Virus record (IMG/VR): IMGVR_UViG_3300045988_149282
Coordinates: 1 to 64,000 of that record
Reading direction: 5' to 3' (one strand)
Source of the DNA: a virus
Taxonomy: Duplodnaviria > Heunggongvirae > Uroviricota > Caudoviricetes
Length of the DNA: 64,000 nucleotides
The position numbers and the translations under genes were made by a program. Below are positions 1,403 to 62,764 of the stretch, in pieces. Numbering within the stretch: position 1 is the first letter of the stretch; every line of letters begins with the position of its first letter. Below the pieces are notes generated by a model. That model was not told the origin of the DNA. It searched no databases and saw nothing but the letters and a program-made list of their open reading frames with translations.

Positions 1403-1464
1403 GAGGGGAGGGCCACCGATGCTGGTGGCCATCAATTACCACCTGCTTTCCCGCAGGCTAAAAA

Positions 1465-1551
1465 CACCCACCTCTTACCGCCAGGCTACCGAAGCACCCA
1501 CCTGTTCCCGTCCGGCTACCGAAGCACCCACCTGTTCCCGTCCGGCTACCG
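1465..1551. repeat. tandem direct repeats, ~3 copies of a 30-bp unit (iteron-like)
   Basis: CACCCACCTGTTCCCGTCCGGCTACCGAAG repeated head-to-tail (two near-identical copies plus one diverged, and a more degenerate copy at ~1438-1464) in the intergenic region. Confidence 0.7.
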
Positions 1552-1637
1552 CAACTTTCCACTTTGACGCCTTATTCGTACAACGATAATTAACACCAAC
1601 AAGAAAACAATTTGTTATTTACGATAAGGAATTAATC

Positions 1638-2152: not shown

Positions 2153-2711
2153 ATAGCCACCAGCTGCCGCAGGGAAATTTTCAGAAACGGCGAGGAACGT
2201 ATTCATGAGCCGACGGGGAACGGCCAGGATTTTTTCGGGAAACGGCTGCATTTGCCTTTGTGTAGAAAAAACATCGGGAAGCTGGTGGAATCCAACCAGC
2301 GGTTGTCGGACAGGTGAGCGGGGAAAATTATGATGACTTTCGTCACCTGAGACATCCAGATTTCTTTCGTAGCATAATCACATACGTGATTAAGTGGTGT
2401 GATTATGTGAAAAATCACGCGCACATAATACACGAGCGGATACGGAACAAAACAAAATACCGATCCGCACCGACAAATAAGCGCGGATCACATAGCAAGA
2501 CTAAAAGCCAATGATTAACCATACTCTATAGCGCAATATAACGCGTTTTAAGCGCGTTAATGTGTTAAGTAATGGGCATGTACTGGTAAGGATATAAAAG
2601 CGCGTCTATGGCGTTATTTTGGCGCTTATTTTTATGTTGTTGGAGTGAGTTAAAGACAATAAAAACGCGCCATCATTGGCGCGTTATGGTAGGTGTATTG
2701 GAAACGAAAAA

Positions 2712-3190: not shown

Positions 3191-3238
3191 CTTTAAAGCT
3201 CCTTTAAAGCGCCCACAATGGGCGCTTGATTCCATTAA

Positions 3239-4184: not shown

Positions 4185-4709
4185 TTAAAATGGAAGGATT
4201 CGTTCAACCCAATCGAAGAAAACAAGTATTTTTCTGCCGTCTTCTAACTTAAGAGTGACCTGGCAAGCATCAACGCCTCTTGACACCCCTTCAATTTCAC
4301 GACCGTCTGCCATGTAGACCCTTATAGATTGGTCGTTTTGATAAGCCTTGCGACATATCGCAAAAAAGTCACGGCGTGATGGCTGATTGTCAACATAGTC
4401 TGGATGTATTGTTAGCCTACCTTTGAACTCGCGAGCAATGCCATCGATTACACCTGATTCAATTGTGCTAATGCGCTCAAGTGGGAGTCTTATACGATTT
4501 TCTTTATCATATGGAAGCGGGCATAAATCTAGCTTATTGCGGGAAGGCATTGTCCCCTGAACGTACATGCAAAACACCTGACCGTCTTCAAGCGTGACTC
4601 TTACAGGAATGTTGTTCTTCCGCCAGAACATAAGTATGTTTTCAGCATGTTCGTAGTCTCGCGGCCAGACTTCAGCCGGTATGCCGTAGGTGATGTCCGA
4701 TGTTCTCAT
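4185..4709 (-). CDS. hypothetical cytoplasmic protein (174 aa)
   Basis: Minus-strand ORF; start overlaps the stop of the upstream gene (ATGA); hairpin terminator downstream at ~4148-4173. Confidence 0.55.
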   Translation of the reverse strand: MRTSDITYGIPAEVWPRDYEHAENILMFWRKNNIPVRVTLEDGQVFCMYVQGTMPSRNKLDLCPLPYDKENRIRLPLERISTIESGVIDGIAREFKGRLTIHPDYVDNQPSRRDFFAICRKAYQNDQSIRVYMADGREIEGVSRGVDACQVTLKLEDGRKILVFFDWVERILPF

Positions 4710-7320: not shown

Positions 7321-7402
7321 AAACCTCTTTCCTTAGTGCCTTTTGTATGTTATTTGGCTATTATAATAAGTAAGTGATTACTTAGTGGATTGTAGCAATA
7401 AA

Positions 7403-8083
7403 ATGGACGTAAAAATCACGATTTTGCAGGTTGATGTTGCCAACCTTCGCCCGAATACCTGGAACACCAATTCGGTTGGTGCGCAGAATTTCGAAAAACT
7501 GAAAGGTTCTATCGAAAAATTGGGCTTTTTTAAGCCAATTTTGGCTCGTGAGCTTGAAGATGGATTTTTTGAAATCCTCGGCGGCGAACATCGCTGGCGT
7601 GCTGCTATTGAGCAAGGAATTTCAACGGTTCCTGTGCTTTCTGTGGGCAAAATTAGCGATGTCGTGGCAAAACAGATGTCACTGGTGGACAACGAGCGAT
7701 ACGGTGAAGACGACCAAATCGCATTGCAACGCTTCATTGAAGAAATTCAGTCAGAACTTGACTATCAACTGTCTGAAATCGCCCCGTATGACGACGAAAT
7801 CTCGATGGTTTTAGCAAAAGAGGCGGCAATCGACCTTGAAGCACTGGAGGCGTTGTCTCGTGGTAGTGATGAGCCTGTCGATACCGACAAACGAGAGAAA
7901 ACCGAACGTGTGGGTGCGGAACATCAGACCATGCGCTTCAAAGTAACTTTCGATGCGTCAGATCGTGTTGCAGAAACTATAAAAAACATCATCAAAGAGC
8001 AGGCTATTAACACCGGTAATGAAATGGAGAACGCTGGTGAGGCTCTGGTGTGGCTGGTCGACTACTACAAGGAGCGTATGTAA
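7403..8083 (+). CDS. ParB-like nuclease domain protein 1
   Basis: ParB/Srx N-terminal domain signature (...FEILGGEHRWRAAIEQGISTVPVL...); ORF track 7385 (GTG), first ATG at 7403. Confidence 0.75.
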   Translation: MDVKITILQVDVANLRPNTWNTNSVGAQNFEKLKGSIEKLGFFKPILARELEDGFFEILGGEHRWRAAIEQGISTVPVLSVGKISDVVAKQMSLVDNERYGEDDQIALQRFIEEIQSELDYQLSEIAPYDDEISMVLAKEAAIDLEALEALSRGSDEPVDTDKREKTERVGAEHQTMRFKVTFDASDRVAETIKNIIKEQAINTGNEMENAGEALVWLVDYYKERM

Positions 8084-8751
8084 TGACCAAAAAGTTTGAA
8101 ATCGTATATCGCGACCCGGCAGATCTTATTCCCTATGAGATGAATGCCAAAAAGCATGATGAACAGCAGATCAGAGATCTGGCCGCAGCCATTAAAAAGC
8201 GCGGATTTGACCAGCCAATTACGGTCGATAAGAACGACGTAATTATTACTGGCCACGGCCGCCGTGAGGCTGCAATTTTTGCTGGACTTGAGCGCGTACC
8301 GGTTATTGTTCGTGATGATCTGAGTGATGACGAGGTACGTGCAAAGCGCCTTGAAGATAACCGACTTGCCAGCATTGATTACGATGCAATTAAGCTACAG
8401 AAAGAGCTTGAGTCGCTTGTTCTGGACGATATCGAGGTTTTCGGCTTCGAAGAGCGTGAGTTGAATGTTCTCGTTGGCAGTATGACAGAAGAAATGGACA
8501 CCGACTCGCTAGTTATCGATCTTGGCGAAGAAACTAAACGACAGAAGGATGAACACACCGAGATCAGTCGTGAAGTTGCAGCGGAAGAAGTACGTGTTGT
8601 CGACGTATTGGGCTTTAAAACGCTTCCTGCTGGCTCTGCCATTGTTGTTGGTGATTTGCTTGCCCACATGGAAGAAATGACGGGAGAAAGCGGGGTAGAC
8701 GCATTTGTGGCATATGCGGAGAAGATCTCTTCCGGGGAGATGGCTGCATGA
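8083..8751 (+). CDS. ParB-like nuclease domain protein 2
   Basis: ParB box (VIITGHGRREAAIFAGLERVPVIV); start overlaps the upstream stop (TAATG) with AGGAG RBS; acidic C-terminal half. Confidence 0.75.
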   Translation: MTKKFEIVYRDPADLIPYEMNAKKHDEQQIRDLAAAIKKRGFDQPITVDKNDVIITGHGRREAAIFAGLERVPVIVRDDLSDDEVRAKRLEDNRLASIDYDAIKLQKELESLVLDDIEVFGFEERELNVLVGSMTEEMDTDSLVIDLGEETKRQKDEHTEISREVAAEEVRVVDVLGFKTLPAGSAIVVGDLLAHMEEMTGESGVDAFVAYAEKISSGEMAA

Positions 8752-9413
8752 GCAAATACATCATCAACGTATCGTTTCAGACACGCGTAAATAAAACCAC
8801 GCGCACGTTGGAAATCGCTGAGTCGTTCGGGCTTGGCCTGGACGAAAAAGAGTGGACGCTTTACGACAATCTGGAGCTGGAAGTGAAGCAGGGCGATGTG
8901 GTGTACATCACCGGCCAATCCGGTTCCGGCAAATCCGTTGTGCTGCGCGAGTTGCAACGACAGCTGAAGGATGAAGGGCTGTCTGTAGCCTCCATCGATG
9001 ATTTTACCTTCGATAATGAGGTTAACGTCATCGATCAGTTGGGCAAAACGACCAGCGATGCGCTTGGGTTGTTATCTATGGCTGGTCTGAACGATGCATA
9101 TCTGTTTGTTCGCAAGCCTTCTGAAATGTCAGACGGTCAGAAATATCGTCTCAAGATTGCCAAACTGATTGAGTCAGGCGCTAAAGTGTGGGCTGCTGAC
9201 GAGTTCGGTGCTGTTTTAGACCGTGTAACCGCTCAGGTTGTGGCATCTAACCTCCAGCGTGCCGCTCGAAAGGTTGGTGCGACGGTAATGGTGGCGACGA
9301 CTCACGAAGACCTGAAGAACGCGCTGCGCCCGGATATGCAGATCACCAAGCACTACAAAGAACGCGTGAAGGTGGAATATCACAATGGTAGTCATGATGA
9401 GGTCCATTCATGA
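8748..9413 (+). CDS. small ABC-type ATPase (P-loop NTPase)
   Basis: Walker A (GQSGSGKS), ABC-signature-like SDGQKYR, Walker B (VWAADEFGAVLD), H-loop-like TTHEDL; start overlaps upstream stop (ATGA). Confidence 0.65.
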   Translation: MSKYIINVSFQTRVNKTTRTLEIAESFGLGLDEKEWTLYDNLELEVKQGDVVYITGQSGSGKSVVLRELQRQLKDEGLSVASIDDFTFDNEVNVIDQLGKTTSDALGLLSMAGLNDAYLFVRKPSEMSDGQKYRLKIAKLIESGAKVWAADEFGAVLDRVTAQVVASNLQRAARKVGATVMVATTHEDLKNALRPDMQITKHYKERVKVEYHNGSHDEVHS

Positions 9414-11404: not shown

Positions 11405-12660
11405 TGGCAATCCCGTCCTCGCTCAGTCTTGTGCAACTGCATTCTGGACAGATGAAAGTCTTCCAGTCTCCGCATCGATTTAAAGTTGTTTGTGCTGGTC
11501 GACGCTGGGGAAAATCCCGGTTGTCGATCTCCACTATTATTCGTGCGGCGGCAAAGGAAAAAAAGCAAAGGGTCTGGTATGTCGCTCCTACTTACCAGAT
11601 GGCTCGCCAGATTTTGTGGGACGATCTACAGGAAGTTCTGCCTCGTAAGTGGGTTAGGAAAAAGAACGACACCACGATGACAATCGTGTTGAAGAACGGT
11701 TCGGAGATCGCCCTCAAAGGTGCTGATAAGCCTGACACTCTGCGCGGCGTAGCGTTGCATTTTGTAGTGCTTGATGAATTTCAGGATATGAAGGCTGACA
11801 CCTGGTACAAGGTGTTACGACCTACTCTTTCATCGACACGCGGCGGTGCACTGATCATTGGTACGCCAAAAGGCTTCTCGGAATTTCACAAACTGTGGAC
11901 TATAGGCCAGAACGTAGAGCTGCAAAGAAAGGGACAGTGGAAGAGCTGGCAGTTTGTAACTGCCGATTCTCCGTTTGTGCCTACGGCGGAAATTGAAGCT
12001 GCTAAGAACGATATGGACCCCAAATCGTTCGCTCAGGAGTACCTGGCCAGCTTTGAGAACATGTCCGGGCGCGTTTACTACCCGTTCGATCGTAACGTGC
12101 ATGTAAAACCGCTTCAGTTCAACCCTCGGTTGCCTATATGGGTAGGGCAGGACTTCAACATTGACCCGATGTCTTCAGTAATTTTGCAACCTCAGCCAAA
12201 TGGTGAGCTATGGGCAATTGATGAATTGGTGCTCTTTTCCTCTAACACGGCAGAAGTTTGTGATGAGCTTGAGAGACGCTTCTGGCGCTGGAAATCACAG
12301 GTAACGGTATTTCCAGATCCGGCAGGTGCTTATCGCCAACATGCTCGTGGGGAGTCTGACGTAGACATATTCAAAGAGAAGGGATTCTTACGTGTCGATT
12401 ATTCGAAAAAGCACCCGCCAATTGCGGATCGTGTTAATGCTGTTAACCGAATGCTGATGTCCGCATCTGGAGATATCCGGCTGTATATCGATCCGAAGTG
12501 CAAGCATTTGATTGATTCACTGGAAAAAGTCATCTACAAGCCTGGAACACGAGATATGGATAAGACAGGTGGCATTGAGCATAGTGCAGACGCATTGGGC
12601 TATCCAGTACATCGTAGGTATCCAGTCAAAAACCGTGTTATTCTTGGTGGTTCTCGATAG
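11404..12660 (+). CDS. terminase large subunit
   Basis: Walker A-like CAGRRWGKS, Walker B-like VVLDEFQDM, C-terminal nuclease-like region; located before the portal gene. Confidence 0.85.
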   Translation: MAIPSSLSLVQLHSGQMKVFQSPHRFKVVCAGRRWGKSRLSISTIIRAAAKEKKQRVWYVAPTYQMARQILWDDLQEVLPRKWVRKKNDTTMTIVLKNGSEIALKGADKPDTLRGVALHFVVLDEFQDMKADTWYKVLRPTLSSTRGGALIIGTPKGFSEFHKLWTIGQNVELQRKGQWKSWQFVTADSPFVPTAEIEAAKNDMDPKSFAQEYLASFENMSGRVYYPFDRNVHVKPLQFNPRLPIWVGQDFNIDPMSSVILQPQPNGELWAIDELVLFSSNTAEVCDELERRFWRWKSQVTVFPDPAGAYRQHARGESDVDIFKEKGFLRVDYSKKHPPIADRVNAVNRMLMSASGDIRLYIDPKCKHLIDSLEKVIYKPGTRDMDKTGGIEHSADALGYPVHRRYPVKNRVILGGSR

Positions 12661-12686: not shown

Positions 12687-14261
12687 ATGGAATTGAACGA
12701 CAAACAAATTAAGGATCTGGTGGCGCGACGCCACCCGGAATACGAAAAGAAAAAAGAACATTGGGACTTCCTCGCCAGCACTTACGCTGGCGGGCGTGGT
12801 TGGTTTACAGACAATATCTTTCGTTACTTTAAAGAGGGAGATCAGGAGTTTAAGGAGCGAGTTGAACGTGCTTATCGCTTCAACCACACTCGTGAGGTGG
12901 TAAACCTCATCAACAAATATCTCTTTAAAGAAGACATTCATAGAAATATCGAAGAGGCACCAGAGCAGATCCGCAATTTCTGGAAACGTGCGACTCGCCA
13001 GAATGCCTCTATTGACTCATTTATGGCCGCTATTGATTTGCAGTCGTCTATTTACGGTCGCATATGGGTTGTTGTCGATAGCACGATGAGTGGTGATGTT
13101 GAGTCAGTAGCTGACGAGAAAAAGAAAGATGCTCGCGCCTACGCCTACTGGATTTCACCTCAGCAAATGCTGGATGTGGCATGGGACGACGACGGGAATA
13201 TGTTGTGGGCGTTAATTGTGGAAGTCGCTCGTGATGACGCAGATCCTTTTACTTCTACAGGTCAGGAATACCAACGTTATCGTCTGTGGACACAAAACGA
13301 GTGGTATCTGTTCCGTGAGGAAGTGAAGAAGGGCGCTGGTGGAGCAGGTCGCCGTCAGGCAAAAGTTATTTTAGAGGATAGCGGTGAGCATAATCTCGGC
13401 GTAGTTCCTGTGTTTCCTGTTGATTGTATTGGAGAAAGTGAATCACCGTATTTCAGCCCATCGTTGATCGATGATATCGCTTATCTTGATCGTGCGGTTG
13501 CAAACTATCTGTCAAACCTTGATGCCATTATTCAGGATCAGACATTTAGCCAGTTGGCTATACCGGTACAGTCGCTTTTACCTGGTGATGAAAACCACAC
13601 TAAAGTGCTTGAAATGGGCACAAAGCGAGTCTTCACCTACGATTCTGAAGGTGGAAACCAGCCGTTTTATCTGTCACCAGACCCGAAACAAGCTCAGATG
13701 ATCATCACTACGATTAAGACGGTGATTAACGAAATCTACCATTCAGTTGGTGTAGCTGGTGAGCGAACGAAGCAGGACAACGCACAGGGAATCGATAATT
13801 CATCTGGTGCCGCAAAAATGTATGACTTCCAGCGTGTAAATAGCTTGCTTGTCACAAAAGCAGAGCGTCTGGAAAGGGCTGAACGCCAAATCATGCTACT
13901 GGTTGCGAAATGGATGGGGGTAGATCTGGACGAAGACCACTCTTTAATTGCGTATCCAGAAAGTTTCGATATTCGTGGCCTTACTGATGAATTTTCTGTT
14001 GCCGAGAAACTGTCATTACTTCAGGCACCGGACTCTGTACGTCGTCACCAGATGGAAATGCTTATTGAGAAGATTTTCCCGAACATTACTGAGGCGATGA
14101 AAAAGGAATTTGATAAAGATCTCTTGAATTTTCCTCCAAAAAATGATCTAAATACCCTTGAAAATAAGTCAGTACTTACTTATGATCGTGGTGCAGCCCA
14201 AGAAAGCGGGCAAGATCAACCCCGAGGGAATGGGGACTCATCTACTCAAGAGAACGAGTGA
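12687..14261 (+). CDS. portal protein
   Basis: 524-aa ORF directly after the terminase with an acidic C-terminus; canonical position and size. Confidence 0.75.
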   Translation: MELNDKQIKDLVARRHPEYEKKKEHWDFLASTYAGGRGWFTDNIFRYFKEGDQEFKERVERAYRFNHTREVVNLINKYLFKEDIHRNIEEAPEQIRNFWKRATRQNASIDSFMAAIDLQSSIYGRIWVVVDSTMSGDVESVADEKKKDARAYAYWISPQQMLDVAWDDDGNMLWALIVEVARDDADPFTSTGQEYQRYRLWTQNEWYLFREEVKKGAGGAGRRQAKVILEDSGEHNLGVVPVFPVDCIGESESPYFSPSLIDDIAYLDRAVANYLSNLDAIIQDQTFSQLAIPVQSLLPGDENHTKVLEMGTKRVFTYDSEGGNQPFYLSPDPKQAQMIITTIKTVINEIYHSVGVAGERTKQDNAQGIDNSSGAAKMYDFQRVNSLLVTKAERLERAERQIMLLVAKWMGVDLDEDHSLIAYPESFDIRGLTDEFSVAEKLSLLQAPDSVRRHQMEMLIEKIFPNITEAMKKEFDKDLLNFPPKNDLNTLENKSVLTYDRGAAQESGQDQPRGNGDSSTQENE

Positions 14262-45041: not shown

Positions 45042-45710
45042 ATGACCAAGATCTTTGTGGTTGGCGGCACAAAGGGCGGGCCTGGCAAATCCACCGTTGC
45101 CCAGCAAATTGCCGTTTGCCTGAAAGTCAAAAAGAAGAAGAAGGTTTATATTACCGATATAGATATTCAGCGCACGACAACGAGCTGGTGTGAAGACCGT
45201 CGACAGAACGAAGACCTTGAGCTGATTCCTTTTGCATACGTTCAGGATGACATCATTAAGCACCTAAAATCGCTTCAGGGTAGAGCTGAGTTTGTAGTGG
45301 TAGATGCTGGTGGCTTCGACTCCGAAATTCAGCGACAAGCGATGCTGATGGCTGACGTTATCATTATCCCGCTGCGTCCTAAGCGTCGTGATTTGAAATC
45401 TTTACGTGACATCGATCCTATTATCGACAATGTTCGCAATGTAAACGATAAAGTGAAGGTCCGCGCGGTCATGAACCAGTGCCCGGCTTTGCCATCACAA
45501 GTGTCTCGCATTCTGGCGGCTAAAGAGATTGTTGAGACGTTTGGCATCGAGTCTGCGCCAGTCAATCTATATAACCGCAACGTCTATGATGATGCGGAAG
45601 AGTCTGGTCGCTCTATCTTTGAAATGACCGGTAGCGAGCGCGACAAAAAGGCGGAAGCCGAGTTTGAAGAATTTGTAGATTATCTGTTGAGTCTGGAGGA
45701 AGAAGAATAA
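45042..45710 (+). CDS. parA: ParA/Soj-family partition ATPase
   Basis: Deviant Walker A (GGTKGGPGKST) typical of ParA/MinD; size ~222 aa suggests a type Ib ParA; conserved upstream motif AGAAAACAAGTTGTTT at 44991-45006. Confidence 0.85.
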   Translation: MTKIFVVGGTKGGPGKSTVAQQIAVCLKVKKKKKVYITDIDIQRTTTSWCEDRRQNEDLELIPFAYVQDDIIKHLKSLQGRAEFVVVDAGGFDSEIQRQAMLMADVIIIPLRPKRRDLKSLRDIDPIIDNVRNVNDKVKVRAVMNQCPALPSQVSRILAAKEIVETFGIESAPVNLYNRNVYDDAEESGRSIFEMTGSERDKKAEAEFEEFVDYLLSLEEEE

Positions 45711-47000: not shown

Positions 47001-47055
47001 CCTGCTTCTGTATATATAAATAATAAGTAACTTATTAAATATATACGGAAGCAGG
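47001..47055. repeat. 55-bp palindromic element, copy 2 (exact duplicate of 10601..10655)
   Basis: Identical 55-mer located between the GIY-YIG gene and the replication module. Confidence 0.8.
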
Positions 47056-47171
47056 TCTTTTAAAAGACACCACCAGAACAACTCCCTTCCGTTTCCACTT
47101 CCAAAAACTGCCACCAGTCGCTATCATCCGCTCATTGTGATAAGTAAGTAACTACCTACCAGGTGAGCCAC

Positions 47172-47955: not shown

Positions 47956-49296
47956 ATGACCGAACTTTGCCATACAGGACGCGGGCTGTCCGAAGAGTTT
48001 GATGAAGATTTCCAGAACAGACTGACGGCATATTTTTGTCGTGATCACGAGTTTCTTACTCGTGCGGGAGATCTGGTTGTGCCTAGCCAGTTTGCCAATG
48101 CGGCCAATGCCATATTGGTTAATATGGTTTCGGGCTATTACCGTATGTACAAGAGCGCGCCCTCTTCATCTGCAATTCTGGATATGCTTAAGCGTGCGAA
48201 ACGCGATAAGACTATCCGTGAGGAACTATTCGCCGATGTTGTTGCTGCGTTTAAGCGCATTCTTGCAGAAAAATTGTCCGATACCTCGTACATGGTTGAC
48301 CAGGTATCAACCTTCGCAAAAAGTGTAGCGTTTGATGATGCTCTGATTAAGGCTGCTGAACTGAAAGAGAAAGGCGACTTTCAGGGGGCGATGGCAATCA
48401 TGGCCAAGGTTCAGCAGATTGGATCGAACGAAGCGACCGGAATCTATGACTACTACACCTCCGCAAGTGAGCGATTGAAAGCGCGTGAATATGAGGCTTC
48501 AGAGGAGTATGTACCAAACAGTATTACAACTGGACTCCCTCTTCTCGATAGGTTGCTGTACCAAAAAGGCTGGGCAAAGCGCGAAATGGTGCTCTTCATG
48601 GGGTTCGCTAAATCCGGTAAATCGACCGCAATGGGTGAGTTTTCCATAAACGCAACGCTTGCTGGCTACAATGTTCTGTATCTCTCGCTGGAGGTTCACA
48701 CCACCATTTTATCCGACCGTTTTGATGCAAGATTGTCGGAGACAGAAATGTCCAAGCTGGTGGAACGGCGCGATGAGGTTCATCGTAAGTTGGCAGAGTT
48801 GGGAGCCACGAAGGGGATTGGTAGTTTGTGGGTGGTTGAGCGTCCGTCAGGAAGTATGTCACCGGCAGATCTGGACCGTATGCTTAACAGCATGAAAGCC
48901 AACGGCATGGTGCCTGACATGGTTGTTGTCGACTACGCAGATTTGATGCGTGCCAGTTATGACCTTCGTGATGATCGCGCCAACATTCGTAGCATCTACA
49001 CCGATTTACGTGCTCTTTATGACAAGCATAACGTTGCTGGGATCACGGCATCGCAGACAAACCGTGAAGGTGGCGCGTCAGAAGTTGCCACAATGATGCA
49101 CGCTGCCGACAACATCGAAAAAGTACGTATTGCTGACCTGGTAATAACGATCAACAAAACCGAAGAAGAAGAAGCGAAAGGAGAGGCTCGTCTCTACTTT
49201 GCCGGTTCACGTAACCAGCAGGGAGGGATCAGCATTCGCGTTAAACAAAACCTCGAACAAATGCGCTTCATTGAGCGAATCTTAGACGTTACCTAA
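47956..49296 (+). CDS. replicative DNA helicase (DnaB-like, RecA-fold C-terminal domain)
   Basis: DnaB C-terminal motifs (SITTGLPLLDRLL), Walker A (GFAKSGKST), Walker B (VVVDYADLM), ITASQTNREG; RBS AAAGGAAAG. Confidence 0.85.
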   Translation: MTELCHTGRGLSEEFDEDFQNRLTAYFCRDHEFLTRAGDLVVPSQFANAANAILVNMVSGYYRMYKSAPSSSAILDMLKRAKRDKTIREELFADVVAAFKRILAEKLSDTSYMVDQVSTFAKSVAFDDALIKAAELKEKGDFQGAMAIMAKVQQIGSNEATGIYDYYTSASERLKAREYEASEEYVPNSITTGLPLLDRLLYQKGWAKREMVLFMGFAKSGKSTAMGEFSINATLAGYNVLYLSLEVHTTILSDRFDARLSETEMSKLVERRDEVHRKLAELGATKGIGSLWVVERPSGSMSPADLDRMLNSMKANGMVPDMVVVDYADLMRASYDLRDDRANIRSIYTDLRALYDKHNVAGITASQTNREGGASEVATMMHAADNIEKVRIADLVITINKTEEEEAKGEARLYFAGSRNQQGGISIRVKQNLEQMRFIERILDVT

Positions 49297-60560: not shown

Positions 60561-62669
60561 ATGTCTAAAAAACGTTCCATCAAAGAGGTTCAGGACTTCC
60601 GTGACAGTGTAAAACGAGTAGTCGCTCTCCTTTCAGGTAAAAACATCCCTGTTGCAGAACGAGGGGACGACGCTTATGTACGCTATAACGATGATGGAGA
60701 GCCAATTCTCGTAAACATCCCATCAATCCCGGATAACGCAACACCGGCATTGATGAATGCTGTGCGCGGATTTCTCGATCATGAGGTTGCTCACATTTTG
60801 TTTACCGATATTCGTGTGTCCAACAAAATGAGAGAAAAAGGACGCGTTCCTTCCTGGTCGCTATGGAATGCCTTAGAAGACGTGTTCATCGAGCGAAAAA
60901 TGGGTCAGGTCTTTAACGGAACAAGACGTAATCTGATGGCAACTCAGCGCCTTATAATCGAAAAAGTCTTTAAACCAAAGGCTTCAGAGGCTATTGCTTA
61001 TTGTGGCAAAGATCAGCGCGCGCTTTTTCTAAACTTCTTTCTCTGTCCGGTTGTAAGAGCCTGGGATGGCCAAGCACCGTTCGTAGATTTCATGGATGAA
61101 TACTGGCCTGTCATTGAGAAACCAATTTCATTATTAAAAGAACATGGTATCGATGTGGCCGTGCGTAACATGTCTTGCACCGAGGATTGTGTAAAGGTGG
61201 CTGCGACCATAGCTAAGATCCTCAAAGACACTGAAAGTGAAAGCAAAGGTAAGGAGTCAGCTCCGGGAAAAACTTCCGATCCTTCAGACGCTGACCAGAC
61301 GGATGCCTCTGGAGAAAACAATGAAGACAACGAAGATCATGAGACACCCTCATCGTTAGATAATCACAAATCTATCGAATCAGAATCACATAGTAAGCAC
61401 AAACATGATAATAACGACAGCGATGATTCAGATAATTCTGAATCATCAGAAACAATATTCGATGATACAGAAAATGATAAAGAGGTATCAGATTCTGATG
61501 CTTCTGATAACGCGGCGTCAGAATCATTAACCGCTGACCACGAAAAAAGAAAAACGACAGAAGACGGCTCTTCAGATATCCCAACTCCGTCAAAAATGAG
61601 TCTGGAAGAGGCTTTAGAGGAGCTGGATAGCATAGAAGATGAAGTCGGAGGCATGACAGAAGATGCTCTATCCGAAACGATTAAAAGCGAGTTAACAGAA
61701 AGCTCGAAAAGCGAATACAGGCCATACAATCGCTCATACGACTTCATCGGCTCGATTGATCAGGCAGAAGCCCATATCAAACGGCTTATTAAAACATTCT
61801 CCGATATTGATTTGGGAGGATATCCAATCAGCCGCTATCGCATCGTTCCTGAAGGCAACCAGCTCTTCGACAAATATATTGAAAAGCATCTTTCGTCAGG
61901 TGTTTCGTCGACGCTGGCAAAAGACCTGGAGCGAGCAATAGCAAGCAGAAACAGAGTTCAGTTTATACCGGGCCAGCGTCGGGGGCGCATTCATGGTTCT
62001 AGTATCTACAGATTAGCAATGAATGATGCTCGCGTGTTTCGTAAAAAAGAAGAATCTAAAGCCGTTAACGCCTGTGTTCAACAAGTGATTGATTTATCAG
62101 GTTCAATGAGTGGTATAACGATTAAACTGGCTCTTGCAAGTGCATATACCATCGCCGATGCCCTTGATCGAATAAATGTTCCCAACATTATCACCGGCTT
62201 CACTACATTTGGTAGTCATATGGCGGCAGGAGAACTTAAGGCTGTCAAGTATGAGTTCTCTCGCTTTGAATCTTTAATGCTACCTATCATCAAAAATTGG
62301 AATGAAAAGGTAAATTCTCGCGAAGTTCGCTCACGTATGGGGTGCGTAGGCTACACATTCCCACTTCTTAATAACGTGGATGGTGAAAGCATAGCCAGCC
62401 TTGCATCGTTATTTTCCGGTCGCTTGGAGGACAGGAAGATCATGCTTGTTCTGAGTGATGGCGCGCCGTGGGCTGTTGGGAGAGGTTTTGACGCTCATTT
62501 GCGTTCAGTTGCGAAGCAAATTGAAACGCAGACTGATATTGATTTGATGGCAATTGGCATCATGACTGACGCACCGGAGAGATTTTACTCAAATCATGCC
62601 CTGGTAACGAGCGTTGATAGTCTTGGTTCATCTGTAGTTACTGAACTATCTCGTATCATTTTAAAGTGA
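60561..62669 (+). CDS. von Willebrand factor A (vWA) domain protein, CobT-like, with long acidic Ser/Asp/Glu-rich linker
   Basis: C-terminal vWA MIDAS motif (VIDLSGSMSG), N-terminal HEVAH segment, central ~150-aa acidic low-complexity region; paired with the downstream AAA+ gene. Confidence 0.7.
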   Translation: MSKKRSIKEVQDFRDSVKRVVALLSGKNIPVAERGDDAYVRYNDDGEPILVNIPSIPDNATPALMNAVRGFLDHEVAHILFTDIRVSNKMREKGRVPSWSLWNALEDVFIERKMGQVFNGTRRNLMATQRLIIEKVFKPKASEAIAYCGKDQRALFLNFFLCPVVRAWDGQAPFVDFMDEYWPVIEKPISLLKEHGIDVAVRNMSCTEDCVKVAATIAKILKDTESESKGKESAPGKTSDPSDADQTDASGENNEDNEDHETPSSLDNHKSIESESHSKHKHDNNDSDDSDNSESSETIFDDTENDKEVSDSDASDNAASESLTADHEKRKTTEDGSSDIPTPSKMSLEEALEELDSIEDEVGGMTEDALSETIKSELTESSKSEYRPYNRSYDFIGSIDQAEAHIKRLIKTFSDIDLGGYPISRYRIVPEGNQLFDKYIEKHLSSGVSSTLAKDLERAIASRNRVQFIPGQRRGRIHGSSIYRLAMNDARVFRKKEESKAVNACVQQVIDLSGSMSGITIKLALASAYTIADALDRINVPNIITGFTTFGSHMAAGELKAVKYEFSRFESLMLPIIKNWNEKVNSREVRSRMGCVGYTFPLLNNVDGESIASLASLFSGRLEDRKIMLVLSDGAPWAVGRGFDAHLRSVAKQIETQTDIDLMAIGIMTDAPERFYSNHALVTSVDSLGSSVVTELSRIILK

Positions 62670-62764
62670 ACAAAACAGCCTTAATGATAAGTTACTACTT
62701 ACGATAGATGATGATATATTTATATAAGAAGTTGAACGCTCATTAGAGAACAAAGGAAAAACGC

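Follow-up and report, generated by a model that had tools for sequence, protein, structure and literature searches.

A putative cis-acting direct-repeat recognition array between early gene cassettes of SSU5-type phage-plasmids

Genes and features at the locus

In the window (the whole stretch of DNA that was analyzed, 64,000 nucleotides), a tandem array of 30-bp direct repeats occupies the interval between two small early genes on the + strand. The gene to its left is a 93-aa ORF (1121-1402; phrog_1845, unknown function), which is a variable neighbor, and the gene to its right, to which the array is linked, encodes a protein of 160 aa (1638-2120; phrog_1641, unknown function). The initial annotation had described tandem repeats of about 30 bp lying between two small early genes, and both the repeats and their placement, between the stop codon of the first gene and the start of the second, are borne out. 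When Tandem Repeats Finder is run on the 64-kb window, as had been proposed, the array is recovered as the top tandem repeat, with a period of 30 at 1465-1551 (2.9 copies, 92% matches, score 146) and a consensus that is the one quoted earlier. It is by far the strongest tandem repeat in the window, the next best scoring 56.

Read in register, the array consists of four head-to-tail units, A to D, on the + strand (1436-1554). Unit A (1436-1464) is diverged and carries a box 1-like TACCACCTG, a spacer and box 2 CAGGCTAA, its right half being part of a highly conserved core. Unit B (1465-1494), the most conserved, is composed of box 1 ACCCACCTC at 1466-1474, the spacer TTACCGC and box 2 CAGGCTAC at 1482-1489. 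Unit D (1525-1554), with box 1 ACCCACCTG and box 2 CCGGCTAC, is the third unit of the E. coli type, and unit C (1495-1524) is an extra copy. A search for the 30-mer elsewhere in the window, allowing up to three mismatches, returned no further copy, and none is expected in shuffled sequences.

Units C and D differ by 2 nt, at their 3' end, so that the earlier description of two nearly identical copies is correct as far as it goes, but this pair is evidently a recent 30-bp duplication private to the window sequence. The closest relatives, L001 and L018, carry A-B-D only, and the C-D junction has no match above 90.8% in any of the 220 complete E. coli genomes that possess the locus. Because the duplication is private, the ancestral array had three diverged units; the extra unit is a neutral, recent product of unequal crossing-over. 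Among 75 IMG/VR loci, arrays of three units predominate (55), followed by those of two units (16) and of one unit (3), with four units in a single locus, and whole-unit changes are seen as a duplication of unit B in L079 and as the presence of one unit fewer in L068.

Immediately to the left of the array lies an RNA hairpin, GGCCACC-gatgct-GGTGGCC (1411-1430, + strand), which has no U-tract, shows compensatory changes and is also present in the predicted fold. Its variants, GGCCATC/GATGGCC, GGCCATC/GGTGGCC and GAGCCACC/GGTGGCTC, include G.U intermediates as well as compensatory pairs, and they pair only as + strand RNA. The hairpin and the array occur together after no fewer than four different upstream genes, all of them co-directional. 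Other lineages carry different genes to the left of the array, some of them on the opposite strand; where the upstream gene is divergent (a 90-aa gene in SSU5, L027 and L073, and a 62-aa gene in L038, L065 and L077), the hairpin is lost and box 2 of unit A is kept together with units B and C. In neighboring cassettes, the equivalent slot is taken by intrinsic-terminator-like hairpins followed by T-runs. The RefSeq name given to the homologue of the 93-aa ORF is 'ABC transporter', which is probably an annotation artifact because the protein has only 93 aa and no Pfam match.

To the right of the array, a sigma-70-type promoter is predicted for the 160-aa gene at 1564-1590 (+ strand), with TTGACG at 1564-1569, a 15-nt spacer and GATAAT at 1585-1590. 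Across 71 distinct sequences the hexamers, TT(T/G)GAC(G) and GATAAT, are conserved and the spacer is variable; a consensus promoter scanner made no call at 1564-1590. The 71-sequence alignment also has a conserved AAACAAnTTGTT palindrome after the promoter. In the window this is an operator-like palindrome, AAACAAtTTGTTA, on the + strand at 1605-1617, downstream of the -10 hexamer, and the array ends about 50 nt before it, in agreement with the earlier statement that the repeats lie upstream of a AACAATTTGTT motif. The 13-bp palindrome AAACAAnTTGTTT has eight sites in the window (131, 1038, 1605, 10694, 10719, 44994, 47924 and 60529) compared to 0.37 expected. Where sites were read in context they adjoin promoters, such as those ahead of parA and the 93-aa gene; further sites precede the ORFs for the terminase and the DnaB-like helicase. 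The palindrome looks like the operator of a global repressor.

A protein-coding origin of the repeat was considered, given a 56-aa ORF at 1419-1589 and an ORF annotated here in pJN2-26. Among 70 distinct sequences, however, the segment between box 2 of unit A and the -35 hexamer has lengths in all three classes modulo 3. These lengths, together with single-base indels and the loss of the reading frame, lead us to reject a protein-coding repeat.

The 160-aa protein has homologues only in SSU5-like elements. Its AF2 model is confident (pLDDT 87.7), and comparison with the PDB gave no fold match with Z >= 5 and no recognizable DNA- or RNA-binding fold. We therefore reject the 160-aa protein as a recognizable DNA-binding initiator or regulator, and it offers no clue to what binds the array. 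The linkage between the two is strict: in all 65 of the 65 IMG/VR matches to unit B the 160-aa gene comes next, whatever lies upstream, even a divergent gene as in SSU5 and some further lineages.

Several other features were noted in the surrounding DNA. Chi sites (GCTGGTGG) are enriched about 10-fold in the window (14 compared to 1.45 expected), 12 of them being on the + strand, and examples are found at 1421-1428, inside the hairpin upstream of the array, at 2157-2164 (- strand) and at 2281-2288. The convergent intergenic zone at 2400-2740 and 3206-3236 contains several terminator-like hairpins on both strands, and an element AAAGCGCCCA(T/C)A(G/A)TGGGCGCT is repeated at 2710-2740 and 3206-3236.

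Relatives, conservation and a second array

A sequence search with the region around the array returned SSU5-like phage-plasmids, and the window is evidently an E. coli phage-plasmid of the SSU5/pHCM2 type. The identity to the array region is 98.8% for E. coli plasmids such as NZ_CP122519.1, 97.5% for phage Cyrano (pLF82), where part of the query is aligned, and about 86% for Klebsiella phage-plasmids; SSU5 is likewise among the matches. The repeat locus is present in 55 Yersinia plasmid records and in 220 complete E. coli genomes, in every one of which it is carried on a plasmid. According to the annotation of NZ_CP122519.1, the closest full relative, the window begins among the small early genes, takes in the structural genes and reaches a cluster encoding a DnaB-type helicase and primase, and the plasmid initiator gene lies outside it. 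Loci for comparison were collected by means of the 160-aa protein (75 from IMG/VR, 6 from genomes and 4 from GenBank), giving 71 distinct upstream sequences.

In the alignment of these 71 sequences, a conserved block comprises the right half of unit A and all of unit B, after which the third unit is more variable up to the promoter. The 45-nt core at 1450-1494 is identical at 43-45 of 45 positions in SSU5 and in Kluyvera-, Yersinia- and Klebsiella-type lineages, in which the adjacent coding sequence is only 68-82% identical to that of the window; where this identity is 68-70%, third codon positions are 44-48% identical. A few lineages have lower values for the core (34-42 of 45). The array is evidently under strong selection, although its very high conservation may partly reflect repeated recombination through the array patch, since the window is itself a recombinant with a junction inside the array. 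This junction is located at about 1475, within unit B. The left side, including the 93-aa gene, is of Klebsiella type, with 45/45 identity of the core to pJN2-26, and the right side is of the Cyrano/E. coli type, its coding sequence being 99.6% identical to Cyrano-like sequence; it is this change of affinity across unit B that places a recombination junction in the array. Across the relatives, the hairpin or unit A is the point at which no fewer than eight different sets of upstream genes are joined to the module.

The same grammar describes 58 distinct units from two arrays: ACC[C/A]ACCTC, exactly 7 variable nt, CAGGCTAC and an A-rich linker, with a period of 29-31 bp. The 7-nt spacing between the two high-information boxes is invariant, and the spacer sequence is free yet 79% pyrimidine. 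That two paralogous arrays keep the boxes invariant and their spacing fixed argues for sequence-specific recognition. In the papers searched by topic and by sequence string there is no description of these repeats, and the sequences of the unit, of the RepA iteron discussed below and of the palindrome are all without mention in them.

The second array (array 2) falls just outside the window on its left, at a distance of 3-4 kb upstream from the 160-aa gene; its two to three units are of the same kind and strand and recur every 29-31 bp. It is present in 52 of the 64 loci that have at least 5 kb of flanking sequence. A conserved, promoter-like TTGACG-17-TTATAC and two AAACAAnTTGTTT palindromes precede array 2 by about 190-280 nt, and just past the array no promoter is obvious. 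In L087 it is embedded in a non-coding, G-poor and A/C-rich tract of about 900 nt (A 358, C 278, T 177, G 127), which ends at a terminator-like hairpin followed by a T-run. This tract may be an early non-coding RNA; it is silent in Cyrano lysogens. The tract of L087 corresponds to 48160-49170 of that locus and to 98160-99170 of NZ_CP122519.1, about 0.9-1.9 kb to the left of the window start, and it also holds another repeated motif, GCCATTAC(C/T).

Apart from array 2, no further units were found in the 64-kb window or in the 50 kb of the relative's record that were scanned (positions 50001-100000). A search of 2.9 million viral contigs (IMG/VR) with a degenerate two-unit pattern gave 85 stretches, and 84 of the 85, among the matches listed, fall in SSU5-like contigs. 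The sole unfamiliar contig proved to be a chance match in coding DNA, so this architecture was rejected as a feature of elements other than SSU5-like ones.

Past the terminator of the 160-aa gene, at 2160-2330 of the window and in all lineages examined, there are about three copies of a G-rich repeat, G(G/A)AAACGGC(C/T)(A/G)G, a paralogous copy of which follows the A/C-rich tract at 49230-49360 of L087. That these are inverted 30-bp units was rejected (local alignment score 17, compared to 15.3 +/- 2.5 for shuffles). There are short complementary matches between array 2 and the downstream G-rich segments, but long-range RNA pairing between them was also rejected, the duplex energy being -67.5 within lineages and -65.7 between lineages.

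Replication and partition

The initial annotation had suggested that tandem repeats of this type mark a replication origin or a partition centromere. The array is separate from the plasmid replication origin. In NZ_CP122519.1, a RepB-family initiator is encoded at 62105-63319, about 38 kb from the repeats, and at least 14 iterons ACCGCTGACAGCATA are found on both sides of it, which we take to be the classical arrangement of origin and control iterons. In L087 these plasmid-replicon iterons lie at 11567-12104 and 13214-13320, around repA and outside the window. The ACCGCTGACAGCATA iteron and the 30-bp unit share no sequence, and no 30-bp unit is present near repA in positions 50001-100000 of the relative's record. 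Moreover, there is no rep gene within 5 kb of the array and no DnaA box within 800 bp of it (the nearest match being at 2406-2414), and the window as a whole shows no enrichment of such boxes. The array resembles the iterons of theta plasmids (of the P1, F/RepFIB and pPS10 types) in its head-to-tail direct repeats with an asymmetric conserved core, in its whole-unit variation of copy number and in having a second cluster at a distance. Unlike these iterons, however, it has a period of 30 bp rather than about 21-22 bp and possesses neither an adjacent initiator gene nor DnaA boxes nor a free AT-rich unwinding element. Published iterons of related plasmids adjoin repA; in Klebsiella SSU5-like (IncpKPHS1) plasmids, four of them are located 48-218 bp downstream of this gene (PMC6735626). 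The proposal that the repeats are iterons of the plasmid (prophage) origin, bound by an initiator of the RepB/RepA family, has their tandem-repeat appearance in its favor and, set against an initiator about 38 kb away with unrelated iterons of its own, has next to no chance of being correct.

An origin used in the lytic cycle has been weighed separately. The units would then bind a phage replisome organizer, the stretch after the array (1551-1650, 31% G+C) would unwind, and the two arrays would be two origins, as in SPP1. Two arrays do exist, the GC-rich repeats abut an AT-rich stretch, and SSU5-like phages apparently have no known lytic origin. Nevertheless, the AT-richness of 1551-1650 is explained by what appear to be the conserved promoter, operator and RBS, DnaA boxes are absent from the vicinity, and no replication gene lies within 5 kb, the replication genes being clustered 45 kb away. 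The GC-skew check that had been suggested was run and gives no signal at the array. Cumulative skew follows gene orientation, so that the array locus is not singled out, and because its minimum at 6-7 kb coincides with the divergence of transcription, the curve is uninformative on an origin at the array. A near-perfect, AT-rich 55-bp palindrome, CCTGCTTCTGTATATAT...ATATATACGGAAGCAGG, is located at 47001-47055 and is followed by a C-rich stretch (47062-47161). This palindrome stands directly upstream of the replication cluster, which comprises a 249-aa ORF, the DnaB-like helicase and the primase, and on structural grounds it is a stronger candidate lytic origin than the 30-bp repeats are. On balance, a lytic origin at the array seems to us quite improbable.

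A ParA/MipZ-type ATPase (45042-45710) and its 119-aa partner are also encoded in the window, and the arrays might be centromere sites for this partner at a distance from the par operon, as in N15 and pSM19035. The omega, parH and sopC-like arrays of pSM19035, TP228 and N15, respectively, lie upstream of promoters, off the par operon and in more than one cluster. The 30-bp repeats share all three features with these dispersed centromeres of the type Ib/N15 kind; in addition, they are direct repeats of variable copy number. The subsites of such centromeres, however, are closely packed and 4-7 bp long, or are palindromes, whereas the units of the array are bipartite and 30 bp in length. The upstream region of parA has a conserved block of its own, with TAGGCAT/TAGGCTA 9 bp apart and a 13-bp palindrome. 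TAGGCAT and TAGGCTA are loosely like box 2 (CAGGCTA), although what they share is only an AGGC(T/A) core, which at 5-6 nt is too short for statistics. The par genes are 43.5 kb from the array. They are matched in 774 plasmid records, with Yersinia absent from the 10 named genera and at most one record unnamed, yet the repeat locus is kept in 55 Yersinia plasmids, so that array and par genes do not co-occur as a centromere and its partner should. There are also contigs that encode ParA and yet lack array 2 in the 7 kb upstream of the 160-aa gene, and strict linkage to a single gene and its promoter is unexpected for a centromere. The centromere proposal is accordingly disfavored, and we judge it unlikely. 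Elsewhere, at 7385-9413, the window has genes for two ParB_N-domain proteins side by side (232 and 233 aa) and for an ABC-type ATPase (221 aa), which come just before the terminase genes and have a UvsW-like helicase as a neighbor; this is not a classical partition operon.

Transcription at the cassette boundary

The more general notion in the initial annotation, that of an array of binding sites, fits the boxes, their fixed spacing and their conservation; its specific form as an origin is contradicted and that as a centromere disfavored. The position of the array and its strict linkage to one promoter and gene point to a role in cis in transcription at the boundary. We give about even chances to the reading in which the array is a sequence-specific factor-binding element at a transcription and cassette boundary, acting in DNA or RNA form. 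The units would be recognition sites for a sequence-specific factor, most likely encoded by the element, and would act in cis on transcription where the conserved cassette of the 160-aa gene meets the variable early gene upstream. Filling the gap from the terminal RNA hairpin of the upstream cassette to the -35 hexamer of the next promoter, the array would serve to insulate or tune the promoter of the 160-aa gene. In the DNA form, the factor would be bound to duplex 45-165 bp upstream of the transcription start. In the RNA form, read-through would yield an unstructured, C-rich RNA of the Rho-loading type, in which the boxes would be read by the factor.

Composition and structure bear on the choice between these forms. 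With 47 C and 16 G residues, 1464-1563 (+ strand) has the highest C minus G per 100 nt of the window, about 4.3-4.7 SD above the mean, and the array would give at least 80 nt of C-rich, G-poor sense RNA, as looked for in a rut site. Its minimum free energy of folding is -17.9, compared to -20.35 +/- 2.64 for shuffles (z +0.93), which agrees with the little structure expected of a rut site. A stable RNA structure of the array was rejected, as neither strand folds better than shuffles, and Rfam covariance models, including those of CRISPR repeats, gave no match at the array even at E <= 5. Untranslated RNA following a co-directional gene is expected in the window and in most lineages but not in contexts of the SSU5, L027, L038 and L073 types. 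The hairpin and the C-rich, unstructured tract fit the anatomy of a factor-dependent (Rho-type) terminator or insulator. The integrity of units B and C beside a divergent upstream gene, where no + strand transcript is expected, argues against an RNA or terminator role, and a duplex-DNA upstream control region fits this persistence between divergent genes. Against a site that is duplex DNA alone stand two other observations, the pyrimidine skew where the sequence is unconstrained and the A/C-rich surroundings of array 2.

Similar evidence can be read as a plain Rho-dependent terminator, the hairpin being a processed 3' end of the mRNA and the repeats a rut site with no dedicated factor, which we consider doubtful. 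Rut sites such as lambda tR1 rutA-boxA-rutB are C-rich, G-poor and unstructured RNA after a stop codon. The array is alike in these respects; it has the top C>G skew of the window, and it directly follows the stop codon and a covarying hairpin devoid of a U-tract. Tolerance of whole-unit changes in copy number would also be understandable. Box 1 with the start of the spacer (CCUCUUAC) resembles what we take to be lambda boxA (CGCUCUUAC), and the array presumably also has likenesses to the RfaH ops element and the 16S anti-SD sequence; no weight is placed on these resemblances. RNA-seq data for Cyrano are in keeping with a plain terminator as well as with the factor-binding reading: the upstream gene, CYRAN_110, is at the detection floor, and CYRAN_111, the homologue of the 160-aa gene, is about 5-fold above the local background (PMC9928086, table S1; gene-level data). 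CYRAN_103, which overlaps array 2, is at the floor in the same gene-level table (PMC9928086, table S1). A rut site, however, needs composition and not sequence, and so leaves unexplained the 43-45/45 identity of the core, the two invariant boxes with their conserved GG and the exact 7-nt spacing; nor would units B and C be expected to persist beside a divergent upstream gene, where there should be neither an upstream transcript nor read-through. To our knowledge, rut sites are not conserved in sequence as the array is and have no invariant GG. It is also conceivable that the repeats have no function of their own and are a remnant prone to slippage, whose similarity is maintained because cassettes recombine through it as a patch of homology, rather as in the promoter/stem-loop cassettes of T4-type phages. 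In favor of this, units have been gained and lost, the window itself recombined at a point within the array, and the many upstream contexts (at least eight) are all joined at the hairpin or unit A. Recombination alone, however, does not make a box/spacer/box pattern with fixed spacing in two paralogous arrays, and it does not account for near-invariance beside sequence that is saturated at silent sites, which makes this alternative very improbable.

A variant of the factor-binding reading, which we put forward as rather unlikely, is that both arrays are single-stranded RNA recognition elements in unstructured, G-poor early transcripts, serving an element-encoded RNA-binding regulator or the capture of a host factor such as Rho. 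One candidate reader would then be a protein of the FljA family encoded at 4185-4709. This 174-aa protein (PF03614, repressor of phase-1 flagellin, E 5e-81) is encoded on the - strand 2.7 kb from the array, has a weak Hfq-like match and is conserved in SSU5-like elements, and it could be an RNA-binding regulator. A mimic of the fliC leader as the target of such a protein was rejected: the non-coding region around array 2 is no more similar than shuffles to the fliC leader, the sequence of which was confirmed in E. coli genomes.

Among systems with a comparable layout, the promoter-early stem-loop (PeSL) cassettes of T4-type phages are a conserved module of hairpin and promoter between small early genes, at mosaic junctions. 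The module described here is similar in that it has a hairpin and a promoter between small early genes at a mosaic junction. We know of no report, however, of a PeSL in which tandemly arrayed bipartite boxes separate stem-loop and promoter.

Phage-plasmids of the SSU5 type are common in clinical E. coli, Klebsiella, Salmonella and Shigella and include pHCM2 of S. Typhi and pMT1 of Y. pestis, and the regulation of their early region is essentially uncharacterized. The present analysis removes a tempting mis-annotation, in that the repeats are not origin iterons, and defines in its place a family-specific non-coding element, with its unit grammar, second array and polymorphism, which is conserved far better than the neighboring genes. 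The array also marks a recombination junction between gene cassettes, which bears on the exchange of accessory genes in SSU5-type elements. What reads the array is now a directly testable question, and if the RNA reading were true, the early region of these elements would contain an undescribed post-transcriptional or antitermination switch.
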